A stretch of 64,000 nt of DNA from a candidate division FCPU426 bacterium (GTDB lineage: Bacteria; Oederibacteriota; Muellerivitia; Muellerivitales; Muellerivitaceae): contig CAVYSE010000028.1 in NCBI GenBank assembly GCA_963771075.1, forward strand, positions 320,001-384,000, read 5' to 3'. Position 1 is the stretch's first letter; each line of letters starts with the position of its first letter. The position numbers and the translations under genes are program-made. Shown piece after piece: positions 22,173-38,165 of the stretch. The notes below the pieces were generated by a model that was given only the letters and a program-made list of their open reading frames with translations, ran no database searches and was not told where the DNA came from.

Positions 22173-24284
22173 ATGGAAAACAGATTCAACTCCCATTTGG
22201 GAACAAGCCTGCGTTCTTGGTTTTGTTTTATTTGTTTTTCCCTCACACTTTCGGTTTTAGCCTACTTCCCACTTTCTTTTACTTGTAAAGCCTGGATCTT
22301 CCTTTTAGGTTTTGGAATTCCATTATTTGTTATTTTTGCTTTTACCCCCACTCCTCCTCCCTCAGGCCAGGTAATCCCTCCTTTCCTGGCTGAGGATCAC
22401 CTGGGCCCTCTCCACACCCGTCCCTGGATCGGACTTGTCTTGGTTCTCATCGCGGGGTTGGCCCGATTTTGGGATATCGGGTCCTCGAACCGCTGGCCGG
22501 GCGGGGATCCCGCCCTGACGGCCTTATCGGTCATTCCCTGGATGGATCATTTACAATGGAAACCCTTTGTCACCCTCAGCCAGATCCCTAGCACGCTTTA
22601 TTATCTTTTCTATCTCGTAACAAGGATGACAGGCTCCTTTATTTTGGGCATCCAGCTTCCTTCCGCAGTTCTCTCGTTTTTGACCCTCCTGATGGGATAT
22701 TCCGCCGGTCGAATATTTTTCCCCCGCACCCTCTCAATGATTTTGGGATCATTGATCGCTTTCAACATCTGGGACCTTATGCTTTCGCGTTGCGATGAGG
22801 CCGGGGTCTTACTTCCCCTTTGGGAGTGGAGCGTTTATGTTGTCCTCGGGCTCTTGATTAAATCTGCAAACCCCACAACCTGTAAGTTTCGGGCCTGCCT
22901 TTTGGGATTGGTCCTAGGATTGGGGCCTTATACCTTTATGGCTTGGCCCGTACTGGCGGTTTTGGTTTTTGGAATCGCGATGGGTTGGTTTTGGAAAAAA
23001 CGTGACGCGGCGGCTGGGGGATTTTTTTTATTTTTCCTGTTTCTGGCCCTAACCCCTTTCTTGCTTTCGGTGATGCGGGAAGGCTACGGCGGGCATCTCC
23101 ATGATGTGGCGGCCTGGAACGCTCCAGCATTTTCATGGTTCGCCCAAACATGGGTGGTTTTCAGCTATTTTCAGTCGATTTTCTGGGGCGGGACACCCGG
23201 TATCGATTTGGCTCCCGGGGGAGGGTTTTTAAATCCCATCCTGGGATCCTTTCTTCTCCTGGGTCTCCTTGAAGTCGTAAAATTCAGGCGTCATTTCCTT
23301 TCTCGGTTCCTACTAGTTGCATTACCCCTTTTCCTCCTGCCCGGGCTTCTCTCCCGTAATCTCGAAGCTCATCGGATGATTCTTGTTTTACCCATCCTTT
23401 TGATCATCGCAGCGGTGGGAATCCAATCCTTGGTAACTTCCGTTCCCGGCCGTATCCGCCTGATCATACTGGTCGGGTTCTTGGGAATTTCCGCCATTGG
23501 TGACTCAAGTCGCCTGTTCTTGCCTACAACTGAGATAAAACAAACCTTAGAGTCCCGGGAGGATTTTCGGACCTTACAGGCTTTGGCTCGCGAGCAAGGT
23601 CCAGGGTGGTTCTTTTCCGATATGATTCCCAATACGGAGGATTATTCTCTCGCCTATTGCACCTATCCTTTCAACGCGGCCTGGAATCAACACCTCAAGC
23701 AAGACGTGAAATGGGCCGCCGTTTTTACCCAAACCCATTATCTTCCCTTTCTTTCCAAGGCCTTTCCTTCCTGCCAATGGAGGGTCGCTCCGGCGGATAA
23801 ACCCGGGGTCCCCAGCCGTCACGCTTTGGGGGCGATGGTGGTCACCCCTGAAAACCGCTCACGATTGGAAGGATGGAGGTCATTTTATTTAATCCAGCAA
23901 GAGCTCAATTTGGAATCAGCGGATATCCCGACCGGAAAATCCCATCAAGCCGTCCTGGAAAAATTCCTCCGGGCTTATCCGCAAGTTCCGGCGGACCCCT
24001 TCCTTCAATCCTGTTATTTTGAAAAACTGGTCTATAACTTTTCCTGGGAAAATACCTTTAATCCCGAGGATACATGGACGAATTGGAAGAATTTTTCCGA
24101 TATCTTCCAAAAATCGTTTGAGAAAAGTTACCGGGACGCGGAACTCTGCGAGAAATACGGCCACCTCCTGGCCGTGGAGGGGGAAGACGACAGGGCGAAA
24201 AAAATGCTGGAGAGAGCGGTGAAACTTGCGCCCGGGGTTCCCTGGTTGAAGTATGAAATCAAGCAGTTGGGTTTAGGGAGTTAA
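22173..24284 (+). CDS. GT-C-like membrane protein with C-terminal TPR (paralog 3)
   Basis: Shares GGFLNP, LLPGL, YPFNA and DPFLQS blocks with paralogs 1 and 2; WPGGDP in place of WPxxDEG. Confidence 0.6.
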   Translation: MENRFNSHLGTSLRSWFCFICFSLTLSVLAYFPLSFTCKAWIFLLGFGIPLFVIFAFTPTPPPSGQVIPPFLAEDHLGPLHTRPWIGLVLVLIAGLARFWDIGSSNRWPGGDPALTALSVIPWMDHLQWKPFVTLSQIPSTLYYLFYLVTRMTGSFILGIQLPSAVLSFLTLLMGYSAGRIFFPRTLSMILGSLIAFNIWDLMLSRCDEAGVLLPLWEWSVYVVLGLLIKSANPTTCKFRACLLGLVLGLGPYTFMAWPVLAVLVFGIAMGWFWKKRDAAAGGFFLFFLFLALTPFLLSVMREGYGGHLHDVAAWNAPAFSWFAQTWVVFSYFQSIFWGGTPGIDLAPGGGFLNPILGSFLLLGLLEVVKFRRHFLSRFLLVALPLFLLPGLLSRNLEAHRMILVLPILLIIAAVGIQSLVTSVPGRIRLIILVGFLGISAIGDSSRLFLPTTEIKQTLESREDFRTLQALAREQGPGWFFSDMIPNTEDYSLAYCTYPFNAAWNQHLKQDVKWAAVFTQTHYLPFLSKAFPSCQWRVAPADKPGVPSRHALGAMVVTPENRSRLEGWRSFYLIQQELNLESADIPTGKSHQAVLEKFLRAYPQVPADPFLQSCYFEKLVYNFSWENTFNPEDTWTNWKNFSDIFQKSFEKSYRDAELCEKYGHLLAVEGEDDRAKKMLERAVKLAPGVPWLKYEIKQLGLGS

Positions 24285-27200
24285 AGTGGGACAGCTTTGG
24301 CCCGGTTTTCTCGGATGAAAAGAAGATGCGCTTCCTTGACGGGATAAGGAGTGGTCTGTCCCAGAAGTTTGGCGTAATGCTTCAATTGCTTGCCGTATTT
24401 CTCGGCTAACTTGTTCGGGTCACGGTCGGTTTTATAATCAACGATCACCCATTTCCCTTCTTCCAGAAAAACTAGGTCGAGCACGGCGTTCAAGAAATCC
24501 TTTTCGTGTTTCCCCGTGAGAGGTAATTCCCGGAAGGTCCGTTCGGACCTTTTAGCCCTTTGGATGAGAGGGTTCGCAAGGGTTTGTTCAACCCACTGGG
24601 CGGCCTCGAGTCTTTGCTCGGATGTGAGCCCCATCTTCTCCCCGTAATATTCCGCTGCTTGGGGGATCTGGGCCGGTTTCCAATCCCAGGCCTTTTCCAA
24701 AAGTAAATGCGTGAATGAACCCAATTCCTTTCCTCCCCAGGGGGAACTGGGCTCGGGCCCTTCCCAGAAACGCTCTTCGGTTTCCTTTTTATCTTCATCC
24801 ACCCCGAGAACTGAGGTAACGGATTGAAAGGTGCGCTTACCCCTCATCCCTTCGACCTGGTTTTTTCTCATTTGCCGTTCAGAATCGAGTTTTTCTTTTT
24901 CCGTTTGAAGCGCTGGGTCTTTGGGATCCACGTTCAGCTTCACCGTCCAGACCGGCGGGTCTTCTAAGGATTCCTTGAGGCTGTCAGGCTCGGCCCAAAG
25001 CACTGGCGAGCCCTTTTCTTCCAAGGCCTTCAAGAGCGGTCCCGCAAATAGGTTTTCGTTTTGGAATTTGCCCTCGGGGGGCAATTGGAAATACGGTAGC
25101 AAAAGACAATCCCGGGCGCGGGTGACGGCCACATAGAGCAGGCGGGTGTTCTCAGCCAGTTGTTGTAGTTCCTCGTCTTGTTTGACCGGGTCGTAATTGG
25201 TCGTCTTTAGACCCAGGTCAACCTTGCCCACCTTGAAGGCACCCGCCATGGCCTTGCGGTCCACCAGGCTCCCCGAATCCTTCGGGTCCGACGCCCAGGC
25301 GGAAATAAAGACGATAGGAAATTCCAGCCCCTTGGCCTTGTGGATGGTCATCAAGGTGATGCGGTCCTCCGAGGAATCGGGCCCAGGGGCCTCGCCCTCT
25401 AAGGTTCCCTCTTCCTGTTGGGTGATCAGCCATTGGGTGAAGGCCCGGTAGGTGAAATGCTGGGTGGTTTCCAGATTCCGAGCCTGGTCCAACACCTTCA
25501 TCAGGTTGGCGACCCGCTGTTCCCCGTGGGGTTGTCCAGCGGTGATGGCCAGAAGGTTGGTGTGCTCATAAAGGTAGCTCAGGGTTTCCGAAACGCCGAG
25601 GATGCGGGTGGCATCGAACCAATCCCGTAAACACTTAAAGGCTTTTCCCATCTTTTCTTTCGCATCTTCTTGAAACAGGAAAGAACCTTTGTCGGCACGA
25701 TGAAGGAACAAATCTTCGTCCGAAAACCCAAAGAGGGGCCCCCGCAAGACCGCCACGCAGGCCGCCTCGTCCGCCGGCGAGGAGAGGCAGGTGAGGAGGG
25801 TAGAAAGGGCAACGATCTCGGGCCGGTTGTAGAATCTTTTGCCCCCGATGATCTGGTAGGGCAGGTCCCGCTTGCGCAAGGCTTCTTCCCAGAATTCCTC
25901 GTTTTCATTGGAAAGGTCTCGAAACAGGATGGCGATATCACCCGCCCGAATCGGTCTTTTCTCATGTGTCTGCGGGTCCGAGACCGTCCATCCACCATTA
26001 AGGACCTTTTCTTTCAAGTAGGCCGCCACCCATTCAGCTTCCTGCTGACGGTAAAAGGATTTGGTATCTTCCGACCATTCGGGAATGGGAACCTTCAGAC
26101 CCCAAAGAATAGGGAGTGTGCCTTCGGTCTTCCCTTTTTCCCTGCTGGCGTTCAAGGCCCGATAGGTGATGCCCGAACCCTCGAATTGGGGAAGAAACCG
26201 CTCGTTGACCCATTCGACCAACCCACCCACGGTTCGGAAATTCTCGGTCAGCACCTCCACCTTGCCGCCATTGGCTAGGATTCGTTCCTTGGTAGCTTCG
26301 TAGATGGCCACGTCCGCCCTCCGGAAACGGTAGATGCTTTGTTTGGGGTCTCCCACCAAGAACAGCTTTCCAGGTTCAAGAGCAGCCTTCTTCCAGTCTT
26401 TTTCGTGGCGCCCCTGTAATTCGCAAAGGAAGAAAACTATCTCGACCTGAAGCGGGTCTGTGTCTTGGAACTCGTCCACAAAGAGGGTGTCGAACCGTTT
26501 TTTTATCTCTTCCCGGCTGTCCGGGTGGTCACGTAGAAGGTCCCGAGTCTTTAAAAGCAGGTCGTCGAAATCGAGGAATCCGCTTCGAGCCTTCTGGGTT
26601 TCCCATTCCTTCAAGTAGCCCCCGATCCAATGGATGAGGTTCAACAACACCGCTTCCCGGAAGGGGGCAAAAGCGGAGCTGTGATCCTCGGCGAGTCGTT
26701 CAAAACGCAGGCGGATCTCTTCCAAAACCGCCTTGTCCCAAGCCTTTTGATTGCCTTTCTTTTTGGCCTTGGGAATATCGAGTGAAGCCAATTCAAAAGC
26801 TATCTCTTCAGGCTTTATCGGACCACTCGCATCAATTGCTTTCCCCTTCTCCCTTGCGGGGAGAAGGTCGGGATGTGGGTGGGAATGGCTAACATGGTTA
26901 CCCCTCACCCTACCCTCTCCCTCAAGGGGAGAGGGTTTTTCCAAAATTTCGATGATTTGACTATCGGCCCAGAAGGATTCAAGAGCTTCATACAACTTGT
27001 CTTTGTGGTCCTTGCAGTCTTTCGCGGTCTTTTTGCTCCAAGCGAGGAATTCTTTCCACTCCTTGCGGAATGGCTCGACCGAGAGAAGCGCTTGTTTTTC
27101 CGGGGTTTTCAGAAGAGTCCGATTGCGTTTGAGGAATTGTTTGAGTTTATCCACATGCTCGAAAGTTCCCCCCAGGCGCAGGAACCGGAAGAGGGGTTCA

Positions 27201-27673
27201 ACTGGATGGGAAAGGTTCTTCTTGAGCCAATGTTCCCAGGTCTGGGTCTCAAAAGCGCCGGATTGAACCTCATCCATCAATGCAAATTGGGGGTCCACCC
27301 CGGCTTCGACTGGGTATTCCTTCAATAATCCAGCGCAGAATGAGTGGATGGTCGAAATGGGGGCCTTTTCCATATCTTCTAAGGCTTTTAGGATCAGGTC
27401 TTTTTGTTCGGGTTGTTTTGCTAGGGCCTCTTCAAGTTTGGAGCGCAGACGTTGGGCCAGCTCGGCGGCGGCCTTTTCGGTGAAGGTAATAGCCGCGATG
27501 CGGCTTAAGGGAACCTTTTTTTCAAGCAATAGGGCGATGAGCCGGGCGACCAATTGTGTGGTCTTGCCCGTGCCCGCTCCCGCGTCTACCGCGAAGAGGG
27601 TCTCATGTTCATGAGTGACACGGTCCCGAATTGATTCGTCGGAAACACTTTTCAACTTTCTATTTCCTTTCAA
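24281..27673 (-). CDS. addA: AddA/UvrD-type helicase-nuclease
   Basis: AGAGTGKT, TFTEKAA, VDEFQDT, VGDPKQSIYRFRRAD, TIHKAKGLEF, YVAVTRA and C-terminal IVDYKT nuclease. Confidence 0.9.
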   Translation of the reverse strand: MKGNRKLKSVSDESIRDRVTHEHETLFAVDAGAGTGKTTQLVARLIALLLEKKVPLSRIAAITFTEKAAAELAQRLRSKLEEALAKQPEQKDLILKALEDMEKAPISTIHSFCAGLLKEYPVEAGVDPQFALMDEVQSGAFETQTWEHWLKKNLSHPVEPLFRFLRLGGTFEHVDKLKQFLKRNRTLLKTPEKQALLSVEPFRKEWKEFLAWSKKTAKDCKDHKDKLYEALESFWADSQIIEILEKPSPLEGEGRVRGNHVSHSHPHPDLLPAREKGKAIDASGPIKPEEIAFELASLDIPKAKKKGNQKAWDKAVLEEIRLRFERLAEDHSSAFAPFREAVLLNLIHWIGGYLKEWETQKARSGFLDFDDLLLKTRDLLRDHPDSREEIKKRFDTLFVDEFQDTDPLQVEIVFFLCELQGRHEKDWKKAALEPGKLFLVGDPKQSIYRFRRADVAIYEATKERILANGGKVEVLTENFRTVGGLVEWVNERFLPQFEGSGITYRALNASREKGKTEGTLPILWGLKVPIPEWSEDTKSFYRQQEAEWVAAYLKEKVLNGGWTVSDPQTHEKRPIRAGDIAILFRDLSNENEEFWEEALRKRDLPYQIIGGKRFYNRPEIVALSTLLTCLSSPADEAACVAVLRGPLFGFSDEDLFLHRADKGSFLFQEDAKEKMGKAFKCLRDWFDATRILGVSETLSYLYEHTNLLAITAGQPHGEQRVANLMKVLDQARNLETTQHFTYRAFTQWLITQQEEGTLEGEAPGPDSSEDRITLMTIHKAKGLEFPIVFISAWASDPKDSGSLVDRKAMAGAFKVGKVDLGLKTTNYDPVKQDEELQQLAENTRLLYVAVTRARDCLLLPYFQLPPEGKFQNENLFAGPLLKALEEKGSPVLWAEPDSLKESLEDPPVWTVKLNVDPKDPALQTEKEKLDSERQMRKNQVEGMRGKRTFQSVTSVLGVDEDKKETEERFWEGPEPSSPWGGKELGSFTHLLLEKAWDWKPAQIPQAAEYYGEKMGLTSEQRLEAAQWVEQTLANPLIQRAKRSERTFRELPLTGKHEKDFLNAVLDLVFLEEGKWVIVDYKTDRDPNKLAEKYGKQLKHYAKLLGQTTPYPVKEAHLLFIRENRAKAVPL
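26843..26935. repeat. REP-like palindrome doublet inserted in frame in addA
   Basis: CCTTCTCCC-TTGCG-GGGAGAAGG and CCCCTCACCCTA-CCCTCTCCC-TCAAG-GGGAGAGGG in inverted orientation; translates as PSPLEGEGRVRG...PHPDLLPAREKG. Confidence 0.8.
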
Positions 27674-28124
27674 ACATTAATATCAATATTTCACTTATTT
27701 CATTTTCCTTTGCATCTCGAATAAAAAAGCCATTCCCAATTTGTGTTTCAAAAAAGTTAGGACCAATTCCAAAATATCCTAAGAATTTACCATCTGAATA
27801 AAACTCAATCCGTTTTTTGTGAACGGGAACTCCGTACCACGGAACATACCAATATTTACTTTTTAGACCTATAAATGTTTTAATTTTTTTTATTGTTTCA
27901 GCATCTCTGGTCTCGCCAAATTTTGAATCCATGTTACTTTTAAAAATTAAGTGGTCCGCTTTCTCAATTGATGCGACTGGATAGGTATTTTTCTGATTAT
28001 CATTAAATACCGAACAACCACAAAAAAAAGAGGTCGTAAGGAAAAAAGAAATAATACCTTTAGCGAATCGAAAATTACTCGCGGCTAATTTATTTCCTGT
28101 TGAACCTACATTTTCTTGGCTCAT
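27660..28124 (-). CDS. AT-rich hypothetical putative lipoprotein
   Basis: GGAGG RBS then ATG 28124; hydrophobic stretch ending FCGC (lipobox-like); much lower GC than flanks. Confidence 0.55.
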   Translation of the reverse strand: MSQENVGSTGNKLAASNFRFAKGIISFFLTTSFFCGCSVFNDNQKNTYPVASIEKADHLIFKSNMDSKFGETRDAETIKKIKTFIGLKSKYWYVPWYGVPVHKKRIEFYSDGKFLGYFGIGPNFFETQIGNGFFIRDAKENEISEILILMFERK

Positions 28125-28302
28125 ACCGGTTCCTCCAGCTTGAAAAAATCCCAACCTTATAATCTTCCCGTTTCCGCTCGCCTCGCTTTTCCGCGCCAGG
28201 TCCGCATAAAAATCTACAGTTGCACCGCTCACAAGCCTTGGCCGCAGCGGGGAAAAGGCCCTGCTCCACGTCTTACGATGCGGTCATCAAATGAGCCTTT
28301 AA
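28121..28302 (-). pseudogene. diverged duplicate of the addB 3' end
   Basis: Reads LKAHLMTAS*DVEQGLFPAAAKACERCNCRFLCGPGAEKRGERKRED... versus AddB LKALLMNASQAVERGLFPAAAKACERCDFRLLCGPGSEKRGERKRED; contains a stop and a frameshift. Confidence 0.88.
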
Positions 28303-28344
28303 GTCCCACTTGTTCCCTTTCCCTGGGCGCAATATACTTACGCC

Positions 28345-28527
28345 ATGACACTCAAAACCCTTGAAAAAGCCATCCAAAAGCTGAAGCCGGAAGAGCAACG
28401 TAAGTTTCTTCGCGACTTACCCGCCCTGATCCGCCTTTCCAAGGACGATTTAGCCCGGCTGAAGGCAGCTGAAAAATCCTTTGCCTTCTGGAACAACCCC
28501 GAAGATGCCGTTTATGACCACCTTTAA
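28345..28527 (+). CDS. putative type II antitoxin
   Basis: 60 aa with tail FAFWNNPEDAVYDHL; overlaps the downstream PemK toxin. Confidence 0.75.
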   Translation: MTLKTLEKAIQKLKPEEQRKFLRDLPALIRLSKDDLARLKAAEKSFAFWNNPEDAVYDHL

Positions 28528-28858
28528 AAAGGGTGACATCGTTCTAGTAGCTTTTCCCTTTACCGACCTTACCACCACCAAAGTACGTCCGGCTTTAGTC
28601 ATTTCCTCAGACTCTTTTCAAAGGTCAAGCCTAGATATTGTTTTAGCAGGCATTACCTCCCAGATTCCCAAAAAGCTACCCATTACTGATTTCCTTTTGT
28701 CGGAAGAGGACCAACACCAAGCTGGCCTCCCCAAACCCTCCATCGTGCGGCTAGGCAAGATCGTCACCTTGGACAAACGGTTGATTCGAAAAAAATTAGG
28801 CCATCTTCCTGAGGTCACCCTATCCAAGTTGACCATGGAACTACATAAAGTTATTTAA
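28514..28858 (+). CDS. PemK/MazF-family endoribonuclease toxin
   Basis: KGDIVLVAFPFTD...KVRPALVIS...ITS...GLPKPS.VRLGKI. Confidence 0.9.
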   Translation: MTTFKKGDIVLVAFPFTDLTTTKVRPALVISSDSFQRSSLDIVLAGITSQIPKKLPITDFLLSEEDQHQAGLPKPSIVRLGKIVTLDKRLIRKKLGHLPEVTLSKLTMELHKVI

Positions 28859-31800
28859 GTTAGCTCCTCCAACTTGAAATAATCTCCAACTCTCATATCT
28901 TCACGTTTCCGCTCGCCACGCTTTTCAGAACCAGGTCCGCAGAGCAACCTGAAATCGCATCTCTCGCAAGCCTTGGCTGCCGCAGGGAAGAGACCCCGTT
29001 CCACAGCTTGGGATGCGTTCATTAATAGAGCTTTCAAAGGTTCTTCAACTTTATCCCAATCGGTGGCGTCGAAGGGGGTGGAGCTGTATCCGCCCTTGGC
29101 CGTGATGAACTCATAGACCGCCTGTTCGGGGGTTAGATTTGGATAGAGCGTGCGACAGGCCCAGAGGTAGAGGGGCATCTGAATTTTGGTGCCTTCCTTT
29201 ACGCTGTTCTTCTTGAAGCCGATGTTGCTTCCCGATTTGTAATCCACGACCCTTAAGTGTTTCCCATCCGCTTTGACATCCACCCGGTCCATGAAGCCTT
29301 CCAGCCGGAAGGTCCCGGCGGGGGTGGTAAAGGCCACCTCGGCCTGGCCTGAGCGGCCAAAGGCCTTCTCAAAATCCACCGGCGTCCAATCGGGGTCTTC
29401 CAAGACCTCCCGTAAGACCCTTTCCAGGTCATGGGTCAAAATGAACTGGCTCCATTGCCACAACGCTAGCGAACCGGGTACGCCTTCCTTCTCGAATCGC
29501 CTGAAGATGCGCTGGGTTTCCTCGCTCAGGGCCAGTCGGGCCTTCTTCTGGTCTCGTTCTTTCAGCCAGCCTTCCTTCACGCCCCGGGAAAGCACTTCTT
29601 CCAAAACCTCGTGCATAAGGTTTCCCTTTTCCGCAGGGTCCAACTGAAAGACCCGCTCGGGTTCTGGGTGAATCTTCAACCCCAGCACATAACGGTAGAA
29701 ATAACGCAGGGGGCAGGCGGCGTAGGTTTCCAGGCGTGAGGCCGAGAGGGTCTTTTGTTTCAGGGAATGTTCCTGGCTGAGCCTTTCGATGGTCTTGGCG
29801 TCCTCGAAGACCCCGTCATAGGGGGTGAAGCGGCGTTTGCCCTGTCGTTCCTGGAGCATTTCCCGGGCTTCCTGGTAGAAGGGCTTCCCTTCCAGATAGG
29901 CCTGGGCGGGCAGGGGGTTGCCCTGTCGGGCTTCCTGGAACCGGGTGAGCACCTCTTCCAGGTCGTCGACCCGGGTGGCTCCTTCGCCCCTGATCCAATC
30001 CGAGACCGAGACCTTCTTGATATAGGGGGAATCCGCGCCCCATTCGGTCTGCCGCTTACCCGTTACAGCCCGCAGGGTTTCGTGCAGGTAGCTGGAAGGA
30101 ACCCTTGGGGCACCGGTGCCGGGATGCAGGTGAGAGGCGGTGAGGATGAGGCATTTCTGGGCGCTTCGGGCCATGAGAAGAAAGAGAAGCTTTTCTTCAA
30201 GGCGGCCTTCCGCCTTCTCGGGGATATGGGCCTTACCCTCGAGAAGACCATTGAGAATTCGTCTTTCCTCATCCAAGAGCAGTGGGTCTTGCCGGGGCAC
30301 CCGGGGAAAACCCTGTTCGACCAAGCCAGGCAGTACGATGACGTCGAATGGAACTCCCCGGGCCTGCATGAGTTCCGAAACCTCGACCCCGCCAAACTTG
30401 GGTGTTTCCCAGGGAATCGATACCTCATCCATGAGCCCAGTAAGCAGGGCGGCCAACTCATCTTTCTCGACCGTGAAAGAATCTTTGGTAAGAATCTCCA
30501 CACCCCACCTCAGGGTCTTCAATTGTTCCTTCGCCTCGGAAGGCCGGAAGATCTTTTCGACCAGGTCGAAGAGCACCCGGGTCTTGCCCACCCAGTTTTT
30601 TTCTTTCTCGAAAAGATGCCGATTGTTGATGAGAATCTGTAAAACCTTTTTCCGAAAGCCTGTTAGCGAATCTCTTTCTTCTTTCGAGAAACTTTCCTCT
30701 TCACGCCTTTCGGGGTCGGAACCTTCATGCAGGTGATCCTGCATGCGGTCCAGCCAAGCGCCCTCGCCTTCCACGATGCCCGCTTCCTTGGAAGCCTGAT
30801 CCCACAAATGAGGATTCCAGTCGGCGCCCTTGAGGCCGAACCCTTCCGGGTTGAGGTTGGGGCTGGAAAGGAAATTCATGAGGGTCTCGCGGGGGAATTC
30901 GTTCTGGAAACACTCAAGCAGAAGCAGGAAGGCCTTGGCCTCCGGGGTTTCCAAGAGGAAGACCGGGGGCTTTTTGGCGATGGGTATTCCTTGGCCGTCG
31001 AAGGCCGGGACGATTTCCCGTCGGTAGGCGTCGAATTGGCGAAGGATCAACCCGCATTGGGTGAAGGTGGTTTTTCTTCGCTCTGCTTCCTCAGTAATGG
31101 AACGCACGACTTCCCGCATTTCCCTAGGCTCACCAGGGCACAAGAGAACCTTCAAATCGGAGTCCTCAAACCTCATCGAACCATCACCCTCATCCCGGCC
31201 TTCTCCCCTCAAGGGAGAAGGAGAACCAGCCACCCTCGCCCCTTGAGGGAGAGGGTCAGGGTGAGGGGTGCCTTGAGATTGTTCCGTTATAAATAAATCG
31301 TTTTGCAATCTGCCAAGCGGTGTCGCCTTTAAGCTTTCATACTTACCAACTCCTTTAACCGTTCCATTTTCTTTCACCCATTCCACGAAAGGTTTGGCGT
31401 ATTCAAAAGCCGGATGATCCTCATAGGGGATGAACCAATAATTTTCCATTTTATTGTCATTGCGAGGAGCCGCCCCAATCGGGGCGTTTGGCGACGTGGC
31501 AATCTCAGTTTTTGCTGTTAAATGAAGTAATACTTTTTTTTGTAGTGCCGGCGCGTCGTAAAAACCGTAGGTCCAGAGCGGGGTTTCGGGCGGCGGCAGG
31601 GTCAGGACGTCGACATAGAGGTCTTCGCGGTCTTTCCATTTCTCCCTATTCTTCCAGGCTTCATAGGCGGCAAGAACCCGGGAGAATTCGTCCCATTTTT
31701 CCGAAAGTCGCTTACGGGTTTTGTCCTTCCCGATCTTGCGGGAGGATCCTTTTAGGTCCGCCGGGTCGATGCTGGCCTGCCGAAGCTCGGATAGGGTGGC

Positions 31801-32169
31801 CTGGAGGGTCTTGTGGAAACCGGGGGTATCCTCCACTGCCTTGAAGGATCGCAAGGCGGGTTTGAGGCCCCGGGCCGTCTCCCGCAAAACCCAGGGCACC
31901 AGGGATTCGGGCAGCATCCGAAAACCCTCCTGAATCCATTTTCCCTCGGTGGCTTCCAGCAAGTATTGGTGGAAAGTCAGGAACCGGATGTTGAAAACTT
32001 GGCCATGCGCGCGGGCCAGGACCTCCCGTAGGTGCCGCACCAACAGGCGGTTGGGGACGAGGACCACCAACGGGGTCAGGGGGTCTTTTAGCCTGAGTTC
32101 CTTCACTTCATCAAACAGCGACTGTTCAAGGAAGGGCTGATAAGGGCCTAAATAAATTGAAAAACCCAA
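28855..32169 (-). CDS. addB: AddB-like PD-(D/E)XK nuclease subunit with Fe-S cysteines
   Basis: SASRLETYAACPLRY, GFMDRVD, VVDYKSG, QMPLY, CERCDFRLLC; probable TTG start at 32169 after GGAG (ORF open to 32238). Confidence 0.85.
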   Translation of the reverse strand: MGFSIYLGPYQPFLEQSLFDEVKELRLKDPLTPLVVLVPNRLLVRHLREVLARAHGQVFNIRFLTFHQYLLEATEGKWIQEGFRMLPESLVPWVLRETARGLKPALRSFKAVEDTPGFHKTLQATLSELRQASIDPADLKGSSRKIGKDKTRKRLSEKWDEFSRVLAAYEAWKNREKWKDREDLYVDVLTLPPPETPLWTYGFYDAPALQKKVLLHLTAKTEIATSPNAPIGAAPRNDNKMENYWFIPYEDHPAFEYAKPFVEWVKENGTVKGVGKYESLKATPLGRLQNDLFITEQSQGTPHPDPLPQGARVAGSPSPLRGEGRDEGDGSMRFEDSDLKVLLCPGEPREMREVVRSITEEAERRKTTFTQCGLILRQFDAYRREIVPAFDGQGIPIAKKPPVFLLETPEAKAFLLLLECFQNEFPRETLMNFLSSPNLNPEGFGLKGADWNPHLWDQASKEAGIVEGEGAWLDRMQDHLHEGSDPERREEESFSKEERDSLTGFRKKVLQILINNRHLFEKEKNWVGKTRVLFDLVEKIFRPSEAKEQLKTLRWGVEILTKDSFTVEKDELAALLTGLMDEVSIPWETPKFGGVEVSELMQARGVPFDVIVLPGLVEQGFPRVPRQDPLLLDEERRILNGLLEGKAHIPEKAEGRLEEKLLFLLMARSAQKCLILTASHLHPGTGAPRVPSSYLHETLRAVTGKRQTEWGADSPYIKKVSVSDWIRGEGATRVDDLEEVLTRFQEARQGNPLPAQAYLEGKPFYQEAREMLQERQGKRRFTPYDGVFEDAKTIERLSQEHSLKQKTLSASRLETYAACPLRYFYRYVLGLKIHPEPERVFQLDPAEKGNLMHEVLEEVLSRGVKEGWLKERDQKKARLALSEETQRIFRRFEKEGVPGSLALWQWSQFILTHDLERVLREVLEDPDWTPVDFEKAFGRSGQAEVAFTTPAGTFRLEGFMDRVDVKADGKHLRVVDYKSGSNIGFKKNSVKEGTKIQMPLYLWACRTLYPNLTPEQAVYEFITAKGGYSSTPFDATDWDKVEEPLKALLMNASQAVERGLFPAAAKACERCDFRLLCGPGSEKRGERKREDMRVGDYFKLEELT
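31187..31268. repeat. REP-like palindrome doublet inserted in frame in addB
   Basis: CCCTCATCCCGG-CCTTCTCCC-CTCAA-GGGAGAAGG and CCCTCGCCC-CTTGA-GGGAGAGGG-TCAGGGTGAGGGG; same family as 26843-26935. Confidence 0.8.
31455..31506. repeat. second palindromic element inserted in frame in addB
   Basis: TGTCATTGCGAGGAGC-CGCCCC-AATC-GGGGCG-TTTGGCGACGTGGCAATCTC; translates as EIATSPNAPIGAAPRND. Confidence 0.7.
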
Positions 32170-32214
32170 GGGAAGGCTCCATGGAAAGGGGGGAGGGTGC
32201 TTTTCTTTCGGGGC

Positions 32215-32226
32215 ATTATATATAAT
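32215..32226. promoter_or_regulatory. candidate bidirectional -10 element between addB and ispH
   Basis: Palindrome ATTATATATAAT gives TATAAT on both strands between the divergent genes. Confidence 0.45.
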
Positions 32227-32281
32227 CGCTTTTCCCAAAACCCTAAAGGTCGCGGGTCCGATTCAACCCAGGGGAGCTTGC

Positions 32282-33124
32282 ATGTCTCGTGAAATCCTAG
32301 TCGCCACCGCCGCTGGCTTCTGCTTCGGCGTGAAACGCGCCATCCAGAAGGCTGAAACCATGGAGAAAGCCTTCATTTTCGGCTCCCTCATCCACAACCC
32401 CCAGGAAGTCGACCGCCTGGCCTCCCTCAACAAGAAGATCGTGCACACGCTGGAAGAGGTCGAGGACAACAAGGTGGTCATCACCGCGCATGGCTTGGAC
32501 GTGAATGTCCTGGACCACATCAAGGAAAAGGGGCTTGAGATCATCGACACCACATGCCCCCTGGTGACCAGGATTTACAACGAGGGAACGAAACTTCAGG
32601 ATCAGGGGCTCCAGATCGTCATCATTGGCGACCCCAAACACGTAGAAGTCAAAGGCATCGCCAGCCGCATGAAAAACCCGATTATCATTTATAACGAGGA
32701 GGATATTTCCCAGGTCCCACAGGGTTCCCGCATCGGCGTGGTTTGCCAAAGCACCCTATTGCTGGAAAAATTCGACCGCTTCGTGGGGCTTCTAAGGGGC
32801 CGTTGCTCCGAGGTGATTCCCGTCAATACCATCTGCAAGCCCACCAAGGACCGCCAGAACGCGGCGGCGACCCTATCCAAACAGGTTGATTTGATGGTGG
32901 TCATCGGGGGCCGTAATTCGTCCAACACCCACAAGCTGGCCGATACCTGCCAGGAATTCCTTCCCAATTCGACTTACCATATCGAGACCGCCCAGGAATT
33001 GGACTCCCAGTGGTTCGCGGGCAAGAACAAGATCGGCATCACTGCCGGCGCTTCCACCCCCGATTACCTGATCGAGGAAGTCATCGCAAAGATCCGCACC
33101 TACGACGAGCTGGTTCCCGCCTAA
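32282..33124 (+). CDS. ispH: 4-hydroxy-3-methylbut-2-enyl diphosphate reductase
   Basis: AGFCFGV, IHN, AHG, DTTCP.V, H.EV, NTIC, SSNT and GITAGASTP motifs. Confidence 0.97.
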   Translation: MSREILVATAAGFCFGVKRAIQKAETMEKAFIFGSLIHNPQEVDRLASLNKKIVHTLEEVEDNKVVITAHGLDVNVLDHIKEKGLEIIDTTCPLVTRIYNEGTKLQDQGLQIVIIGDPKHVEVKGIASRMKNPIIIYNEEDISQVPQGSRIGVVCQSTLLLEKFDRFVGLLRGRCSEVIPVNTICKPTKDRQNAAATLSKQVDLMVVIGGRNSSNTHKLADTCQEFLPNSTYHIETAQELDSQWFAGKNKIGITAGASTPDYLIEEVIAKIRTYDELVPA

Positions 33125-33139
33125 TTTTCCAAGGGCCTT

Positions 33140-34159
33140 CTAATTTCTGGAATGGACCGCTTTCAGCCACCGCTCCAAAGTCTTCATATTGCCTAGGGTA
33201 TCTTCCCAGGACATGCGGGGGGATTCCTTCAAACCCAGTTGTAAGCACCGCCCCACCTCATCCGCTTCCAGGCCATAAAGGTTCTGTTTCTCGGTGATCT
33301 TGAAGACTTTTGGTTTTTTCTCATAAATTTGGACCTCGATTGTCGAGATCCCTTTGCTCCACCGTCCCGGATGCCAAGGGGTCGGGGCATGGATCTTTCC
33401 CTTTGAACCCCAAATAGTTACCCCAACGCCTTTTGACAAACGGGTTCCACAGCAAAGCTGGCCAAGGACCCCGTTCGGAAATTGAAGCGACGCCACGGCC
33501 ATTTCATCCACCCCGGTTAATGGGGAGAGAAGGCCGGTTCCCATAACAACGGTGGGGTTCAAGAAGGGTTTTCCGGACGCCGCACCCGCCAAAAGCCGGG
33601 CCATAGAGGCTGGGTAGCACCCAATATCGAGGATTCCGCCTCCGCCCAGTTTCTTGTTCCAAAGCCGGTGTTTCACATTCACGGGCCGGTCAAAACTGAA
33701 AACGGACTCGATCAACTTCACCTCGCCCACCGCCTTTTGGCGGATCAACTGAACCAGGCGCGCGGTCTGGGGATGGCACCGGTACATGAAAGCTTCCATC
33801 AAAAAAACCCGGTGTTTCCGGGTGGCTTCCAGAACCTTGGCCGTATCCTTTAACGTCATGGTCAGGGGTTTTTCGCAAAGGATCGCTTTTCCGGCCTTCG
33901 CGGCATTGATCGCCCACTCAGCGTGGAAAGGATGAGGCGGGGCAATATAAACCGCGTCCACTTCGCTGTCTTGCAATAGCTCGGCATAGGAACCGTAGTA
34001 GTAAGGAATTTGATACTGGCTGGCGAATTCTAAAGCGGGTTTTTCCTGCCGGCTGGCCACTGCGGTCAAGACACCGGTTTTAGAAACCTTTACGGCTTCC
34101 GCGAAGGCGTGGGCAATGCCGCCGGTGGAGAGAATGCCCCAGTGAATTTTTCGGGTCAT
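33140..34159 (-). CDS. Gfo/Idh/MocA family oxidoreductase
   Basis: WGILSTGGIA, CEKP, EAFMYR.HP, GGGGILDIGCY. Confidence 0.92.
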   Translation of the reverse strand: MTRKIHWGILSTGGIAHAFAEAVKVSKTGVLTAVASRQEKPALEFASQYQIPYYYGSYAELLQDSEVDAVYIAPPHPFHAEWAINAAKAGKAILCEKPLTMTLKDTAKVLEATRKHRVFLMEAFMYRCHPQTARLVQLIRQKAVGEVKLIESVFSFDRPVNVKHRLWNKKLGGGGILDIGCYPASMARLLAGAASGKPFLNPTVVMGTGLLSPLTGVDEMAVASLQFPNGVLGQLCCGTRLSKGVGVTIWGSKGKIHAPTPWHPGRWSKGISTIEVQIYEKKPKVFKITEKQNLYGLEADEVGRCLQLGLKESPRMSWEDTLGNMKTLERWLKAVHSRN

Positions 34160-34217
34160 GACATTCCCTTCTTGAGGAATAGCTTTTAGCCGTTAGCTAA
34201 TAACCAACCACTAACAG

Positions 34218-34445
34218 CTAATGGCTTTCTAATGTTTCTTTCATCATCTTCGCCAGGGTGTCGCAGCAGCAGTCAAACCCCATGTTCTGCTTTCCCGGGC
34301 CAGCTCCCTCATTCATCTTAAGTTTAGGGCTTTTTCCATGGACGGGGCAAACCAGGGTTGCCGCCTTGGCTTCCAAGGCTTTTAAGGCCGCTTCCAAGGC
34401 GCTCTTTTGGATTTCCTCTTTAAACTCTCCACTCATCTTTGACAC
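34218..34445 (-). CDS. small Cys-rich hypothetical protein
   Basis: 75 aa with CPVH and CCC motifs; GAGG upstream. Confidence 0.6.
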   Translation of the reverse strand: MSKMSGEFKEEIQKSALEAALKALEAKAATLVCPVHGKSPKLKMNEGAGPGKQNMGFDCCCDTLAKMMKETLESH

Positions 34446-34532
34446 CTCATCAAAAACTTACTTATTAATGGTTTATTCAAAAAAAAGTATTTCTTCGCGC
34501 CCTTCGCGGTAAAAATTTTGTTGCTATAAAAC

Positions 34533-34564
34533 AAAAAAGCCCGTCCCCCTAGAGGGACGGGCTT
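34533..34564 (-). terminator. intrinsic terminator after the LysM gene
   Basis: AAGCCCGTCCC-CCTAGA-GGGACGGGCTT stem followed by a U-tract on the minus strand. Confidence 0.8.
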
Positions 34565-34579
34565 GATTGTCAGCGGCCA

Positions 34580-34993
34580 TCAGAAATAATCGATCGGCAG
34601 GGTGTTGCGCGGCGAAGAATGTGGCGCGAACTTCGGCGTCTTGGAGGCCAAGGACCGGGCGTTCGAAAGGTCATCGCTCGAGGCATCCATGCGGATCTTC
34701 AGGTCTTGTTTGGGATAGATCAAATCCGGGTCCTGGATCAAGTCGCGGTTGGTCTTGAAGATCAAGGGCCAGGCGAAGCTGTCGGCGTAGGTGCTTTTCT
34801 TGCCAGCGATTCCCCAAAGGGTGTCGCGATGCTTCACCATGTAATCGCTCAGCTTCATGGGGGTCGGAACGGCGGTTGGCGCGGCTTCCGCGACCGGCTT
34901 GGCGGTCTCAACCGTTTTAGTGCTGCTACAACCAATGGCCAAACCCGCTACGGCGACCATGGAAAGAATCAGATTTAATTTTGCGCTACCCAT
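34580..34993 (-). CDS. LysM-domain lipoprotein
   Basis: Lipobox AIGC; YMVKHRDTLWGIA...WPLIFKTNRDLIQDPDLIYPKQ; AGGAG RBS. Confidence 0.88.
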   Translation of the reverse strand: MGSAKLNLILSMVAVAGLAIGCSSTKTVETAKPVAEAAPTAVPTPMKLSDYMVKHRDTLWGIAGKKSTYADSFAWPLIFKTNRDLIQDPDLIYPKQDLKIRMDASSDDLSNARSLASKTPKFAPHSSPRNTLPIDYF

Positions 34994-35214
34994 AGGTGTC
35001 TCCTTGATGGCTTAAAAAAGCGTTGTGCCTTTATTTTGCAGCTAAATATTAGACGAATCAAGGCTCTTTTCCAGCCTCAAATGGATGAAAAGCCGTTTTT
35101 TATCCCCGGGAGGTCTTAAATCGTTAAAAACGCCTTCTGTGGGTGCCCGGTTATCCACAACCCATCGAGAAACAAACAATTAACAAGGTGATGAAAAGTG
35201 TCCTTATTCACCCC

Positions 35215-36267
35215 TTAACAAATTCTTGGAAGTTGTTCCCCACTCAACAGGTCCAAAATGCGGGTAGCTCCCGTTACGCTTTTGAGCCGAACCGATTTAC
35301 CTGCCCCTTCCAACACATGGCCTATCACCCTGGATTGGGAACTGACCTGGTATTTAGCCAGTATTTCCAAGGCTTTTGTGGCCTCTTTTTCAGGCAGGAT
35401 CAGGGCAAAACGTCCCTCATTAGCGACATACAAAGGATCTAGACCCAACAACTCGCAGGCCGCGTTGACGGGTTTAGTAATGGGAATGAGGGCCTCGTCC
35501 AATAGGATCGGATGGGGCCCCGCCTGAGCGATCTCGTTCACCGCCGAAGCCAGCCCCCCCCGGGTCAAATCCCGCAGGCAGTGAACGTCCAACCCCGCTT
35601 TTAAAAGAGCCAAGACCGGCTCATGCAAAAAGGCGCAGTCGCTTTCCAATGTGGTTTCGAATTCCAATCCCTCCCGGGCGGCCATGATGGCGATTCCGTG
35701 GCGGCCCAGGTCCCCGCTGAGGATCACCGCGTCACCAGCCTTTACACCCGCCGGGGATATTTCCCATTTTCCTTCCACCACCCCAACGCCCGAGGTATTG
35801 ATGAAAACCCCGTCTCCTTTTCCCTTATCCACCACCTTGGTATCGCCAGTCACGATATAAACCCCGGCTTCATCGGCAGATTTGCGCATGGACTGGGCGA
35901 TTTTCCATAACTGGTCCAGGGGGAATCCCTCTTCCAAGATGAATCCAGCAGTCAGGTAAAGGGGCTTGGCACCCGCCATCGCCAAATCGTTAACCGTTCC
36001 CGTCACGGCCAACTTGCCGATGTCGCCACCAGGGAAAAAGATAGGTTTTACCACGTAGGAATCGGTGGTCATGGCGATACGGGTGCCAGGCAGGTCCATT
36101 ACCGAGGCGTCGTGGCGCTTTAAAAGGGGCGCGTTCCCGAAAGCGGGCAGGAAGATTTTTTCAATCAGTTGCTGGGTCAGCGTTCCCCCGCCGCCATGGG
36201 CCAGGAGAATCCGGTCGTAATCGTTGAAGGGGATGGGACAATCGAGCGCGAAACCGCTATCGGACAT
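35215..36267 (-). CDS. hypE: hydrogenase maturation carbamoyl dehydratase HypE
   Basis: [36 protein letters not shown] and C-terminal GEQLPRIC. Confidence 0.96.
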
Positions 36268-36322
36268 TTTCAAAATTCCTTTAGAGGATGGTTTTCCATT
36301 CTGTTAAATTTTTACGAAAAAA

Positions 36323-36547
36323 TTAAAGAAGTTGAATGAATTCTTCGACGGATAACCCGGCGTCATTAATGATCCGGCGGAGGGTTCCTAATTTAACATC
36401 GCCAGGATGGCTCGGAACAGTCACGGGATTTGGATGGCCTTCTTTGTAAAGAATAGCGTGGCTTCCGGTATGGTGATCCAGGTGAAAACCAACCCTGCGA
36501 AGGGCGGAAAGAACTTCCCGAGCTTTACAAACAGGAACTTTCGGCAA
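36323..36547 (-). CDS. hicA: HicA-family toxin
   Basis: GF....GSH....VTVP.H..GTLRRII..AG pattern. Confidence 0.88.
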   Translation of the reverse strand: MPKVPVCKAREVLSALRRVGFHLDHHTGSHAILYKEGHPNPVTVPSHPGDVKLGTLRRIINDAGLSVEEFIQLL

Positions 36548-36550
36548 GGT

Positions 36551-36763
36551 TTAAACAGTCAGGGCGACGGATTTGGAATGTTTCTTTCGGGCTATCGAAA
36601 GGGAGTGTTTGTTTGCGACGATTAAATAACCTTCAAGCGCATCCAAGAGGGATCTTTTGGCTTCCTGCAGAGTCTCTCCCTCGGAGATGCAACCCGGGAA
36701 AGCGGGGATATAAGCGGTGTAACCGCCCTCTTTTTGTGGTTCAAAAATCGCGTTGATTTTCAT
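36551..36763 (-). CDS. hicB: HicB-family antitoxin
   Basis: GGY.AYIPAFPGCISEGETLQEA; adjacent to hicA. Confidence 0.88.
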   Translation of the reverse strand: MKINAIFEPQKEGGYTAYIPAFPGCISEGETLQEAKRSLLDALEGYLIVANKHSLSIARKKHSKSVALTV

Positions 36764-36852
36764 GGATTAAGATTAACAAATATTAACAATTCATTCCAGG
36801 GGGACCCGAGCGGATTTCTTTTTAAAATCGAACAGTTAGTTATTGTTTCCAC

Positions 36853-36937
36853 GCCACCGTGGGCCTGGAGCACGCGGTCGTAATCGTTGAAGGGGATGGG
36901 GCATCCGAGCGCGAAACCACTATCTGACATTTTCAAA
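36853..36937 (-). pseudogene. diverged duplicate of the hypE 5' end
   Basis: [26 protein letters not shown] versus Hyp[27 protein letters not shown]; 11 mismatches in 85 bp by hand alignment to 36190-36274. Confidence 0.9.
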
Positions 36938-36979
36938 TGCCCCTTTCAGAACAAAGTCTATAAAACACAAACAATTAAT

Positions 36980-37957
36980 TTATTCTTCAACTCTCTCGAA
37001 TAAATAGAATTCATCACCACCATACTCCAGAATCATCTTTTGTTTTTCCATATCCACTACGATTTCTTTCAAATTACCTCTAAAATCATTATTCTTATTA
37101 ATTGGTTCTGTTTTATATACGAATATTTTGTCACTGAAATTGAAATCCCCTGATCTCAATCCCCCGCCACCTGAACCCCAAGCAGTTGAATCCCAGAAAT
37201 AAAAATTTTCACTTTTTATTAGTTTTGGACTATCTGAAATGCGAAATGTGAGTTTTCCATCAGTAAGATTGAGAGACATCATATTAGAACTGACATAAGC
37301 AGTCCTAAGTATATTAGCTTTTGCAACATCATCTGCATCGTTCTGGGTTACTCCGTTTAGGACATAATCGGTCATCCGCCAAATGCCATCCAAATTGCTA
37401 TATGAATGTAAAGTTACATTTTTGTGATGTCGGCGTGTTATATAGCTCGTACAATTTCTTAATAAACTGTTTTCGGAATTTGTGGGATAAATTGCACCCA
37501 CTTCAAAATGAAGCGCTCCATATCCAATGACATATCCTAAATAATTTGAATAAATTTTATTCCGGTCTTGATCAAGAATTGCATCTTTAAAATCTTGATT
37601 GAAAAATTCCTCCTTATGTTCAAGAAGACCTTTTGCATTGGAAAATATTTGAGTCTTAAACTCCCAATTTTCTTTCTCATCATTTATTTGATCATTTAAA
37701 CAAACGGGATAATCAATTTGGTTGGCAAGCCACACATAATCGTTATTTATGACCGCTTGTTTGATACGGTCAAAATATTCTTTAGCTTTTATATCTTCCG
37801 GTGAATCTACTATTTGGGACTCATAAATGTTTACTGATACCCCCCTACTTATTTGTGGAGCGGAAATGCTTTTGATTTCATCACCTAAACAAAAACTGTA
37901 ATTAAAAATAAAAGACAAAAATGATAAAAACATGAGTTTGATTATTGAAATTCTCAT
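36980..37957 (-). CDS. AT-rich hypothetical exported protein
   Basis: Signal-like N-terminus MRISIIKLMFLSFLSFIF; very low GC; no recognised motif. Confidence 0.65.
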   Translation of the reverse strand: MRISIIKLMFLSFLSFIFNYSFCLGDEIKSISAPQISRGVSVNIYESQIVDSPEDIKAKEYFDRIKQAVINNDYVWLANQIDYPVCLNDQINDEKENWEFKTQIFSNAKGLLEHKEEFFNQDFKDAILDQDRNKIYSNYLGYVIGYGALHFEVGAIYPTNSENSLLRNCTSYITRRHHKNVTLHSYSNLDGIWRMTDYVLNGVTQNDADDVAKANILRTAYVSSNMMSLNLTDGKLTFRISDSPKLIKSENFYFWDSTAWGSGGGGLRSGDFNFSDKIFVYKTEPINKNNDFRGNLKEIVVDMEKQKMILEYGGDEFYLFERVEE

Positions 37958-38087
37958 TTTTATCTCGCGATTTCTAACCCCTAGAGATATTTCATTCATC
38001 CAAGTCTACAAACTTTAAGCTCTCCCACCCAAATCCATTATGACAAAGCATCTAGAGACATTTGTTTGACATTTATGGGCTCTTTTG

Positions 38088-38103
38088 TGTGATGGAAGTC
38101 ATA
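38088..38103. promoter_or_regulatory. candidate operator TGTGA-N6-TCATA upstream of the ech operon
   Basis: TGTGA TGGAAG TCATA begins 16 nt after TTGACA (38066-38071), overlapping the expected -10. Confidence 0.5.
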
Positions 38104-38165
38104 ATAAAAATAAACAAGGGGGCATAGAGTAACTATACAAAATCGTTGAAAAAGCGAGGAAAACC

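Follow-up and report, generated by a model that had tools for sequence, protein, structure and literature searches.

In homology-facilitated illegitimate recombination (de Vries & Wackernagel 2002; Prudhomme et al. 2002; Meier & Wackernagel 2003, as cited in PMC2884548, PMC3240628 and PMC5361080), one homologous anchor is combined with one non-homologous join. Laboratory events of this kind mostly delete recipient DNA (PMC3240628). The same process has been invoked for dimorphic small segments in E. coli (PMC2884548), and proposed for the displaced effector 3' ends and orphan immunity genes of type VI secretion in Vibrio cholerae (PMC5361080). Another close case is the insertion with long target duplication of restriction-modification systems (Furuta et al. 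2010, PMC2853133; Nobusato et al. 2000 as cited). The review PMC3874152, which also covers toxin-antitoxin (TA) systems, mentions long target duplication for restriction-modification systems only in the passages located. All of these papers were compared through passages located by term search. Separate literature searches for a TA equivalent showed no description of gene-end duplicates around type II TA pairs, although one may be in print. The present analysis concerns a TA pair that stands between a live and a dead copy of the 3' end of addB in a candidate division FCPU426 bacterium (assembly GCA_963771075.1). The window is the whole stretch of 64,000 nucleotides from positions 320,001 to 384,000 of contig CAVYSE010000028.1, and window coordinates are used throughout. 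The two addB ends evolved as working ends in two lineages, and the same layout recurs elsewhere in the genome. The present genome (4.39 Mb) is called G000, and G001, G002 and G003 are three other species of its genus-level clade.

As seen in the window, addB (28855..32238, 1127 aa; Pfam PDDEXK_1 3e-40, ADDB_N) is intact, and its last 499 aa have 93-95% amino acid identity to genus relatives. The live repeat copy, found by repeat search and BLAST, consists of the last 61 addB codons (28855..29037) and includes the C-terminal Cys cluster region. The TAA of live addB (28855-28857) overlaps the TAA of the convergent gene for a PemK/MazF-like type II toxin, leaving zero intergenic bases. This toxin (28514..28858, 114 aa, intact) matches PF02452 at E 2e-19 over profile positions 1-108 of 109. 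It is preceded by the gene of a predicted antitoxin of 60 aa (28345..28527), which overlaps the toxin start by 14 nt and has no match in Pfam or NCBIfam. The promoter scan gave no consensus promoter 5' of the antitoxin. According to gene order, overlap and toxin family, the 2 ORFs are predicted to form a PemK/MazF type II TA pair. Upstream of it, a spacer of 42 nt (28303..28344) begins at a non-homologous junction, placed by alignment at 28302/28303. Beyond this junction lies the dead copy of the last 61 addB codons (28121..28302, 182 nt). The copies are thus separated by 552 nt, a gap that is occupied by the intact TA pair. Next comes an orphan ORF of 154 aa (27660..28124) with a lipoprotein-like N-terminus, without a Pfam or NCBIfam match, and with a GC content of about 31% vs 55% in the context. 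It is followed by addA (24281..27673, 1130 aa; Pfam UvrD-helicase 7e-55, UvrD_C, PDDEXK_1), the gene of a UvrD-type helicase-nuclease. With its C-terminal PD-(D/E)XK nuclease, AddB beside the UvrD-type AddA would constitute an AddAB helicase-nuclease, and the relatives are syntenic. The TA pair lies on the plus strand; addB, the dead copy, the 154-aa ORF and addA are all on the minus strand.

The earlier note on this DNA, made by eye from the sequence, had claimed about 74% identity between 28121-28302 and 28855-29037, together with a stop codon and a frameshift in the copy. All of this is confirmed. The repeat search aligned 28151-28302 with 28886-29037 (152 nt, 75% ungapped), and BLAST of the addB end against the whole 4.39-Mb genome gave 78% over 172 nt (E 3e-30) and no third copy. 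The codon-anchored alignment of the live and dead ends holds 43 differences in 173 positions and one 1-nt gap. The dead copy is interrupted by a TAA at codon 11 of 61 (28273-28275) and by a 1-nt deletion between 28150 and 28151. It closes with the TGA at 28121-28123, which overlaps the ATG of the 154-aa ORF (28122-28124) as ATGA. Similarity breaks off sharply at 28302/28303, past which only 5 of 28 positions match. The longest exact runs, of about 14 nt, are situated inside the repeat and not at its edge. The far junction in homology-facilitated illegitimate recombination usually carries 3-10 bp of microhomology.

The structure is also present in independent contigs. Logan contigs from 4 runs of 3 studies, one run of which may be the source of the assembly, were compared over 27000-30000. 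The junction of dead copy and antitoxin is bridged by X1 record 4 (27965-28758, 0 differences) and by X2 record 11 and X5 record 26 (1 difference each), and that of toxin and live addB by X1 record 5, X2 record 12 and X3 record 21 (0 differences each). The two repeats never occur within one Logan contig. A mis-assembly of two strains, which the earlier note had named as a refutation, is ruled out by the bridging of both junctions in contigs of 3 studies. In run X3, record 22 comes from a relative whose addB end has about 86% identity (57 differences over 28865-29286), with ATGA at the addB stop and a different downstream gene. Since the contigs of this run hold both G000-type sequence and the relative, diverged haplotypes of the addB locus co-occur.

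The nature of the differences indicates how the two ends have evolved. By codon position they number 8/9/26 of 58/58/57, an excess at third positions that had been noticed by eye. According to Nei-Gojobori estimates of synonymous (pS) and nonsynonymous (pN) difference, live and dead ends stand at pS 0.68, pN 0.126 and dN/dS 0.08; just 58 codons are usable, and their synonymous sites are close to saturation. Between working addB ends of genus pairs, pS is 0.51-0.84 and pN 0.03-0.056. Compared to four relatives (L002, L003, L004, L046), the dead copy has a pN of 0.12-0.14, an excess of about 0.08. The 43 differences were sorted against seven other ends of the genus clade. Sixteen belong to the dead copy alone and fall evenly on the three codon positions (5/6/5), and 8 belong to the live copy alone (2/1/5); for the remaining 19, both states occur in other lineages (1/2/16). 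The 27 that are not private to the dead copy are thus distributed 3/3/21. The synonymous bias of the differences, together with the evenness of the dead-private changes, shows that each copy acquired most of its differences as a functional gene end, in separate genus-level lineages, and that the dead copy lost function later. The dead copy carries a neutral decay of about 8-10% per site in addition to the divergence usual between functional orthologues. Accordingly worded, the claim that the ends resemble orthologues from different lineages rather than a fresh duplication holds, and the even spread over codon positions that simple decay would leave was not observed. A maximum likelihood tree of 21 addB ends (174 nt) places both copies inside the genus-level clade (support 98/98), with the dead copy beside the pair of live end and G001. 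The support for the latter position is weak, and the tree resolves the genus clade and no branching inside it.

Relatives of this bacterium show the site in a simpler form. The TA pair is missing at this site from all loci compared that hold the addB end, 19 from the family and 12 from metagenomes, and BLAST of both ends gave one match region per matching locus in these sets. The 12 metagenome loci, obtained by a scan with the addB C-terminus, include none closer than G001 and none with the TA pair or the 154-aa gene. Relatives of the 154-aa ORF were likewise not found in 30 other family genomes or in a scan of genome contigs; the latter scan gave 4 loci with PemK relatives. The usual order in relatives is addB, a low-GC gene that often begins at the addB stop, and addA. 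Five of 8 correctly placed relatives (L002, L003, L005, L008, L011) have ATGA at the addB stop, two further loci being misplaced in the alignment. The dead copy, with its ATGA, its low-GC gene and addA behind, therefore keeps an operon end of the type that prevails in the family, as had been proposed from the sequence. The gap between addB and addA holds 15 ORFs with GC under 45% in 15 of 21 relatives' loci (L002-L017, L036-L047), and these and the 154-aa ORF of G000 are mutually unrelated with the exception of two similar pairs. The gap is a hot spot, and many of its low-GC ORFs have signal-peptide-like starts. In two relatives the neighbouring genes themselves look broken, by real breaks or by assembly errors: the addB match of G018 (G018:C58:15697-17189, L010) has an internal TGA and a shifted last part near the 3' end, and addA of G001 (G001:C79, L048) reads as two ORFs of 247 and 896 aa.

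Homologues of the toxin and antitoxin exist at other loci, with identities of 75%/82% in G004 and 65%/68% in G002, and in both the antitoxin partner precedes the toxin. The G004 pair lies between two ORFs that, judged from their sequence, are presumably GDP-mannose dehydratase-like and GDP-fucose synthase-like. No flanking repeats were found around the G004 and G002 homologues. Nucleotide homology to other TA cassettes begins at 28332, 13 nt before the antitoxin ATG. The presence of homologous pairs at unrelated loci in G004 and G002 indicates that the cassette moves. It is mobile, lacks conserved ends and can insert cleanly. As the earlier note had remarked, no integrase or transposase is nearby: none was found by Pfam among the ORFs chosen for the scan between 14219 and 43818 (about 14 kb around the locus). 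ARAGORN gave no tRNA near the locus, and no Rfam family was found in 24000-39000.

Self-alignment of the genome for gene-terminus duplicates beside TA loci, a check proposed in the earlier note, revealed the same layout at hypE, nrdJ and an ABC ATPase gene. A dc-megablast self-comparison missed the known addB repeat, and blastn on 961 overlapping 9-kb pieces was used instead, with direct repeats of 90-600 nt lying at least 100 nt apart. The scan gave 463 local direct-repeat pairs; in 29 of them one copy falls on the 3' end of an open frame with at least 250 aa, and ten were inspected by eye. With addB included, the order of low-GC gene, dead gene end, small two-gene module and live gene is present at four loci.

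The hypE case (36182..36937, minus strand) lies within the window. Here the live 5' end (36182-36274) of a HypE-like AIRS-family gene (35215-36273, minus strand) is repeated at 36845-36937 with 86% identity. The repeat includes the ribosome-binding stretch and about 30 codons, and over the first 31 codons the differences are 2/4/11 by codon position. HicB (36551-36763) and HicA (36323-36547), both identified by Pfam and on the minus strand, stand between the copies, and an orphan gene of 339 aa with 33% GC (36980-37999) lies beyond. In the case of a class II ribonucleotide reductase gene, here called nrdJ (G000:C25:8253-11826, L051), the repeat of 207 nt (80%) consists of the last ~35 codons and a downstream non-coding stretch. 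The differences are 5/2/20 over 35 codons, and conservation in the non-coding part (76 of 85 columns) exceeds that at third codon positions. Two small co-mobile ORFs of no known family separate the copies, with a low-GC ORF beyond. As read from the alignment, the dead copy belongs to the allele class carried intact by G002 and G003, and the live end to the class of G001. At the same nrdJ site, G003 (L058, 295-1731) has a DUF433/DUF2283 pair between two nrdJ-end copies. For the ABC ATPase gene (G000:C24:40917-44582, L052), 90 nt of the 3' end are repeated at 77%, with differences of 4/2/12 over 25 codons; the copies enclose a CopG-type antitoxin-like ORF together with an HTH ORF, and a low-GC ORF of 199 aa lies beyond. 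The distance from this gene to the next conserved gene varies from 354 nt in G001 to 2.2 kb in G000. The simple state, with the conserved gene beside a low-GC gene, is seen in G002 for nrdJ and in both G002 and G003 for hypE.

Several other regions were noted. Outside the window, at G000:C28:404822-409096 (L053), a 3.9-kb island is flanked on one side by the 3' end of a MrfA-like helicase-exonuclease gene and on the other by a second copy of this end (92%); this less clean case contains a HATPase_c_3 protein, a SWIM/DUF6880 protein and a small low-GC ORF. The HEPN/MNT pair at C3:343647-345023, with a 90% repeat, was not counted as a clean case, as it is situated among dispersed repeats and a multi-copy gene 84-94% identical across genera. 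A dispersed repeat of about 171 nt (G000:C25:8099-8270) occurs at least 6 times in G000, at least 10 times in G001, and in G044 and G024 as well. Another, of about 287 nt (G000:C3:342699-342985), recurs with 99% identity at 5 further sites of G000 (C28, C3, C26, C5). Both dispersed repeats lie beside variable loci.

Compared to the known systems, the addB locus resembles homology-facilitated illegitimate recombination in that one homologous anchor and one non-homologous join, with about 1 kb of foreign DNA beside the anchor and no need of mobile-element genes, would account for it. The insert is absent from the homologous site of relatives, and no site-specific recombinase or transposase was found around it in the ORFs scanned between 14219 and 43818. 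Unlike the laboratory events, however, 183 nt of recipient DNA are kept here as a displaced copy, and the donor part adjacent to the anchor is a diverged orthologue rather than unrelated DNA. With the insertion of restriction-modification systems the locus shares an addiction-type module, the absence of a mobility gene, and direct repeats (about 50-420 bp there) that are single-copy in empty-site genomes; in that system too, a start or stop codon frequently falls within the repeats, so that the target gene is left intact. At addB, the flanking repeat of about 183 nt is well over 30 bp, and its sequence is single-copy at the matching loci of the relatives. The cargo here is a type II TA pair, and the repeats at these loci are 75-92% identical, synonymous-biased and not identical at birth, whereas the tabulated restriction-modification repeats seen in PMC2853133 match at 43/46 to 47/47 and at 384/412 to 417/423. 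A pS of 0.68 against a decay of about 8%, with 3/3/21 among the differences not private to the dead copy, is not what repeats near-identical at birth would show.

Displaced gene ends are also known from type VI modules of Vibrio cholerae and from the orphan 3' ends of Rhs/CDI loci, in which a module anchored in the conserved upstream gene shifts the old 3' end and its partner back; at type VI loci, arrays of displaced ends are left (PMC5361080). The shift at addB is alike. Unlike those systems, the gene is a housekeeping recombination nuclease and not a polymorphic toxin, and the displaced partner is an unrelated low-GC orphan gene and not the immunity gene of type VI. Finally, e14 and phage 21 in icd are elements whose integration supplies a replacement gene end. 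They share with addB a working gene with a substituted 3' end and a displaced, synonymously diverged old end beyond the insert, but the insert at addB is just 552 nt, no large element, and has neither an integrase gene nor a defined att core. The event type itself is a known one, close to the long target duplication of restriction-modification systems and to the displaced ends of type VI, and found here for TA cassettes.

Exchange between species is common at this locus. The region of addB and addA (24281-32238) is mosaic among the four genus species, with a blockwise identity of about 70% to 97% and switches of the nearest relative. Over its first 900 nt, G000 addB has 87-94% identity to G002/G003 and 72-80% to G001, and later segments reverse this relation. 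These mosaics imply that interspecies recombination occurs here, and frequently. Over a 20-kb flanking core, G001-G003 are about equidistant from G000 (74-90% by segment), and the addB core is 88-95% identical among the species. The nearest relatives of the live and dead ends are G001 (84%) and G002 (80%), respectively, ranks that weigh little at saturation.

The preferred explanation, with a rough probability of 0.45, is that the addB-addA locus recombined with DNA of a different species from its own genus-level clade, an event that left tandem diverged alleles around the TA pair. The synonymous-biased repeats, the lack of a recombinase or tRNA nearby and the independent contigs lead to this reading. 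The most likely path would be one homologous crossover and one non-homologous join, that is, homology-facilitated illegitimate recombination. An incoming linear fragment would carry part of the addB core, the donor 3' end and the TA pair. RecA would pair the incoming strand in the better conserved addB core, and the poorly matching donor 3' end and the cassette would act as foreign DNA. The far end of the fragment would then be ligated without homology at resident codon -61. The resident 61 codons, fused by ATGA to the resident low-GC gene, would be pushed downstream, and addB would remain intact with the donor end. Such a path would directly account for the constant position of the cassette beside the live gene and of the dead fragment beside its old neighbour. 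The cassette would need no mobility gene of its own, and its addictive nature would help to retain it.

Several observations weigh against the arrival of the pair from another species in this way. When live and dead ends were forced as sisters, the tree was not rejected (AU, approximately unbiased, test p 0.39), and the two copies have three derived states in common, two of them 8 nt apart, which may represent a short conversion patch or chance. The comparison of the copies is itself limited by the near-saturation and the small number of codons, and the polarity is left undecided by the tree. The required donor state, addB followed directly by the TA pair, was seen in no genome or contig found, the 4 PemK-relative loci being left out of this count. 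The homologous cassette in G004 was inserted cleanly without a flanking repeat, and the duplication is therefore not obligatory. A breakpoint was expected near 29050 by the earlier note. Instead, pS between G000 and G001 steps near 29205, from 0.22-0.36 (between 30105 and 29205) to 0.58-0.65 in the last 116 codons; other genus pairs likewise reach 0.49-0.84 in these codons, so the step marks no specific breakpoint. G000-private changes become denser near 29235 (12 in 630 nt before it, 23 in about 380 nt after it), and swings equally large occur elsewhere in addB. No specific breakpoint thus emerged from identity, private changes or pS. Of the proposal that the TA pair came with a replacement addB end and left the host gene intact, the ends of two lineages and the intact addB stand, and joint arrival, with its direction, is one of two or three live options. 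The reverse polarity and a single-crossover circle fit equally well as an incoming TA pair with the live end.

According to the reverse polarity, which is considered unlikely, addB with its live end and the TA pair was already present in the G000 ancestor, and a donor addB-end fragment came in with the 154-aa gene and the 5' part of addA, by a homologous crossover in addA and an illegitimate join just upstream of the pair. A double-crossover replacement would delete the pair and the toxin would kill the cell, and only pair-keeping recombinants would survive. The rapid turnover of low-GC genes at the site (the 15 ORFs in 15 of 21 loci, unrelated apart from two pairs) agrees with this, as does the constant position of the dead fragment next to a low-GC gene at all four loci. 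For both addB and nrdJ, the closest relative is G001 at the live end and G002 or G003 at the dead end, although arguments from the nearest relative are weak when the species are about equidistant. In addA, the first 96 nt hold 7 G000-private changes, followed by 1-2 per 90-120 nt window in the next three windows. However, this polarity likewise requires a clean addB-TA state that was not observed, and the 154-aa gene is in no other genome among the 30 family genomes and the genome-contig scan. It also demands that a TA module pre-exist at all four loci, a presence that is explained directly if the module is the cargo. A Campbell-type event is rather improbable. Here a circle of about 735 bp, composed of a donor addB-end fragment and the TA pair, would enter by a single crossover inside the addB 3' end; the copies would be reciprocal chimeras of donor and recipient, and the 28302/28303 junction would have formed with the circle. 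Exactly the observed geometry of repeat, insert and repeat, with the pair alone as insert, would result. Single-crossover duplications made up 56 of 60 candidate events in E. coli conjugation, with 109-950 bp in 14 sequenced clones, according to the passages seen of PMC3240628. Against the circle, the crossover would have to fall in 183 nt that had an identity of only about 80-85% at the time; the longest exact runs shared by the present copies measure about 14 nt, and the repeat shows no chimeric switch point apart from the gradient common to relatives.

It is improbable to a greater degree that a true long target duplication, with copies identical at birth, was followed by a homologous import that overwrote the live copy. 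Start- or stop-spanning, gene-sparing duplications are documented for restriction-modification systems (PMC2853133, in the passages located), recombination within the genus is frequent, and the live end agrees with G001 in all of the last 20 nt ahead of the divergent tail, a stretch in which a crossover could be resolved. Nevertheless, two events would be needed at each of four loci, all with the same synonymous bias, and the import would have to stop within the last few codons before the cassette. TA pairs are common on integrase-borne elements, and a larger element of this type that had entered the addB 3' end with a replacement end, and was later deleted down to the TA pair, would yield both a replacement end and a displaced end. 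Such a remnant is nonetheless very unlikely, given that neither an integrase or transposase (in the ORFs scanned between 14219 and 43818) nor a tRNA was found, that all four loci hold just small modules of 0.5-1.4 kb, and that the cassette lacks conserved ends, its homology starting 13 nt before the antitoxin ATG. Least credible of all is an in-place duplication of the G000 addB end with simple decay, or a chimeric assembly. The former is consistent with the forced clade of live and dead ends and with the three shared derived sites, but is rejected because its own decay predicts a pS near the decay level of about 8% per site, which cannot yield 0.68 or the 8/9/26 pattern; the latter conflicts with the contigs of 3 studies across both junctions.

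A single event of this type would be ordinary genome evolution, and it is the recurrence around small two-gene modules beside low-GC orphans that is of interest. The movement of chromosomal TA pairs free of transposase and integrase is poorly documented, and at least 4 natural footprints are present in this one genome, with Pfam-identified TA components in the addB and hypE modules. These footprints point to recombination between related species, and not to a dedicated mobile element, as the vehicle. They show how a cell can gain a cassette at the terminus of an important gene, such as addB or nrdJ, and keep the gene. They also provide a searchable signature, a gene-end duplicate with synonymous-biased divergence. 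It is a doubtful but possible extension that small TA cassettes of this soil lineage, free of any mobility gene, spread between related species by using a host gene end as a homing arm, or that they defend the locus against allelic replacement and thereby restrict incoming cassettes to illegitimate joins. If true, the scar of this process would be the succession of low-GC orphan gene, dead diverged gene end, TA module and live gene, and its four or more loci would represent a general RecA-only route for the movement and persistence of chromosomal TA pairs. It would then be the TA counterpart of the 'insertion with long target duplication' and the 'resistance to replacement' of restriction-modification systems.

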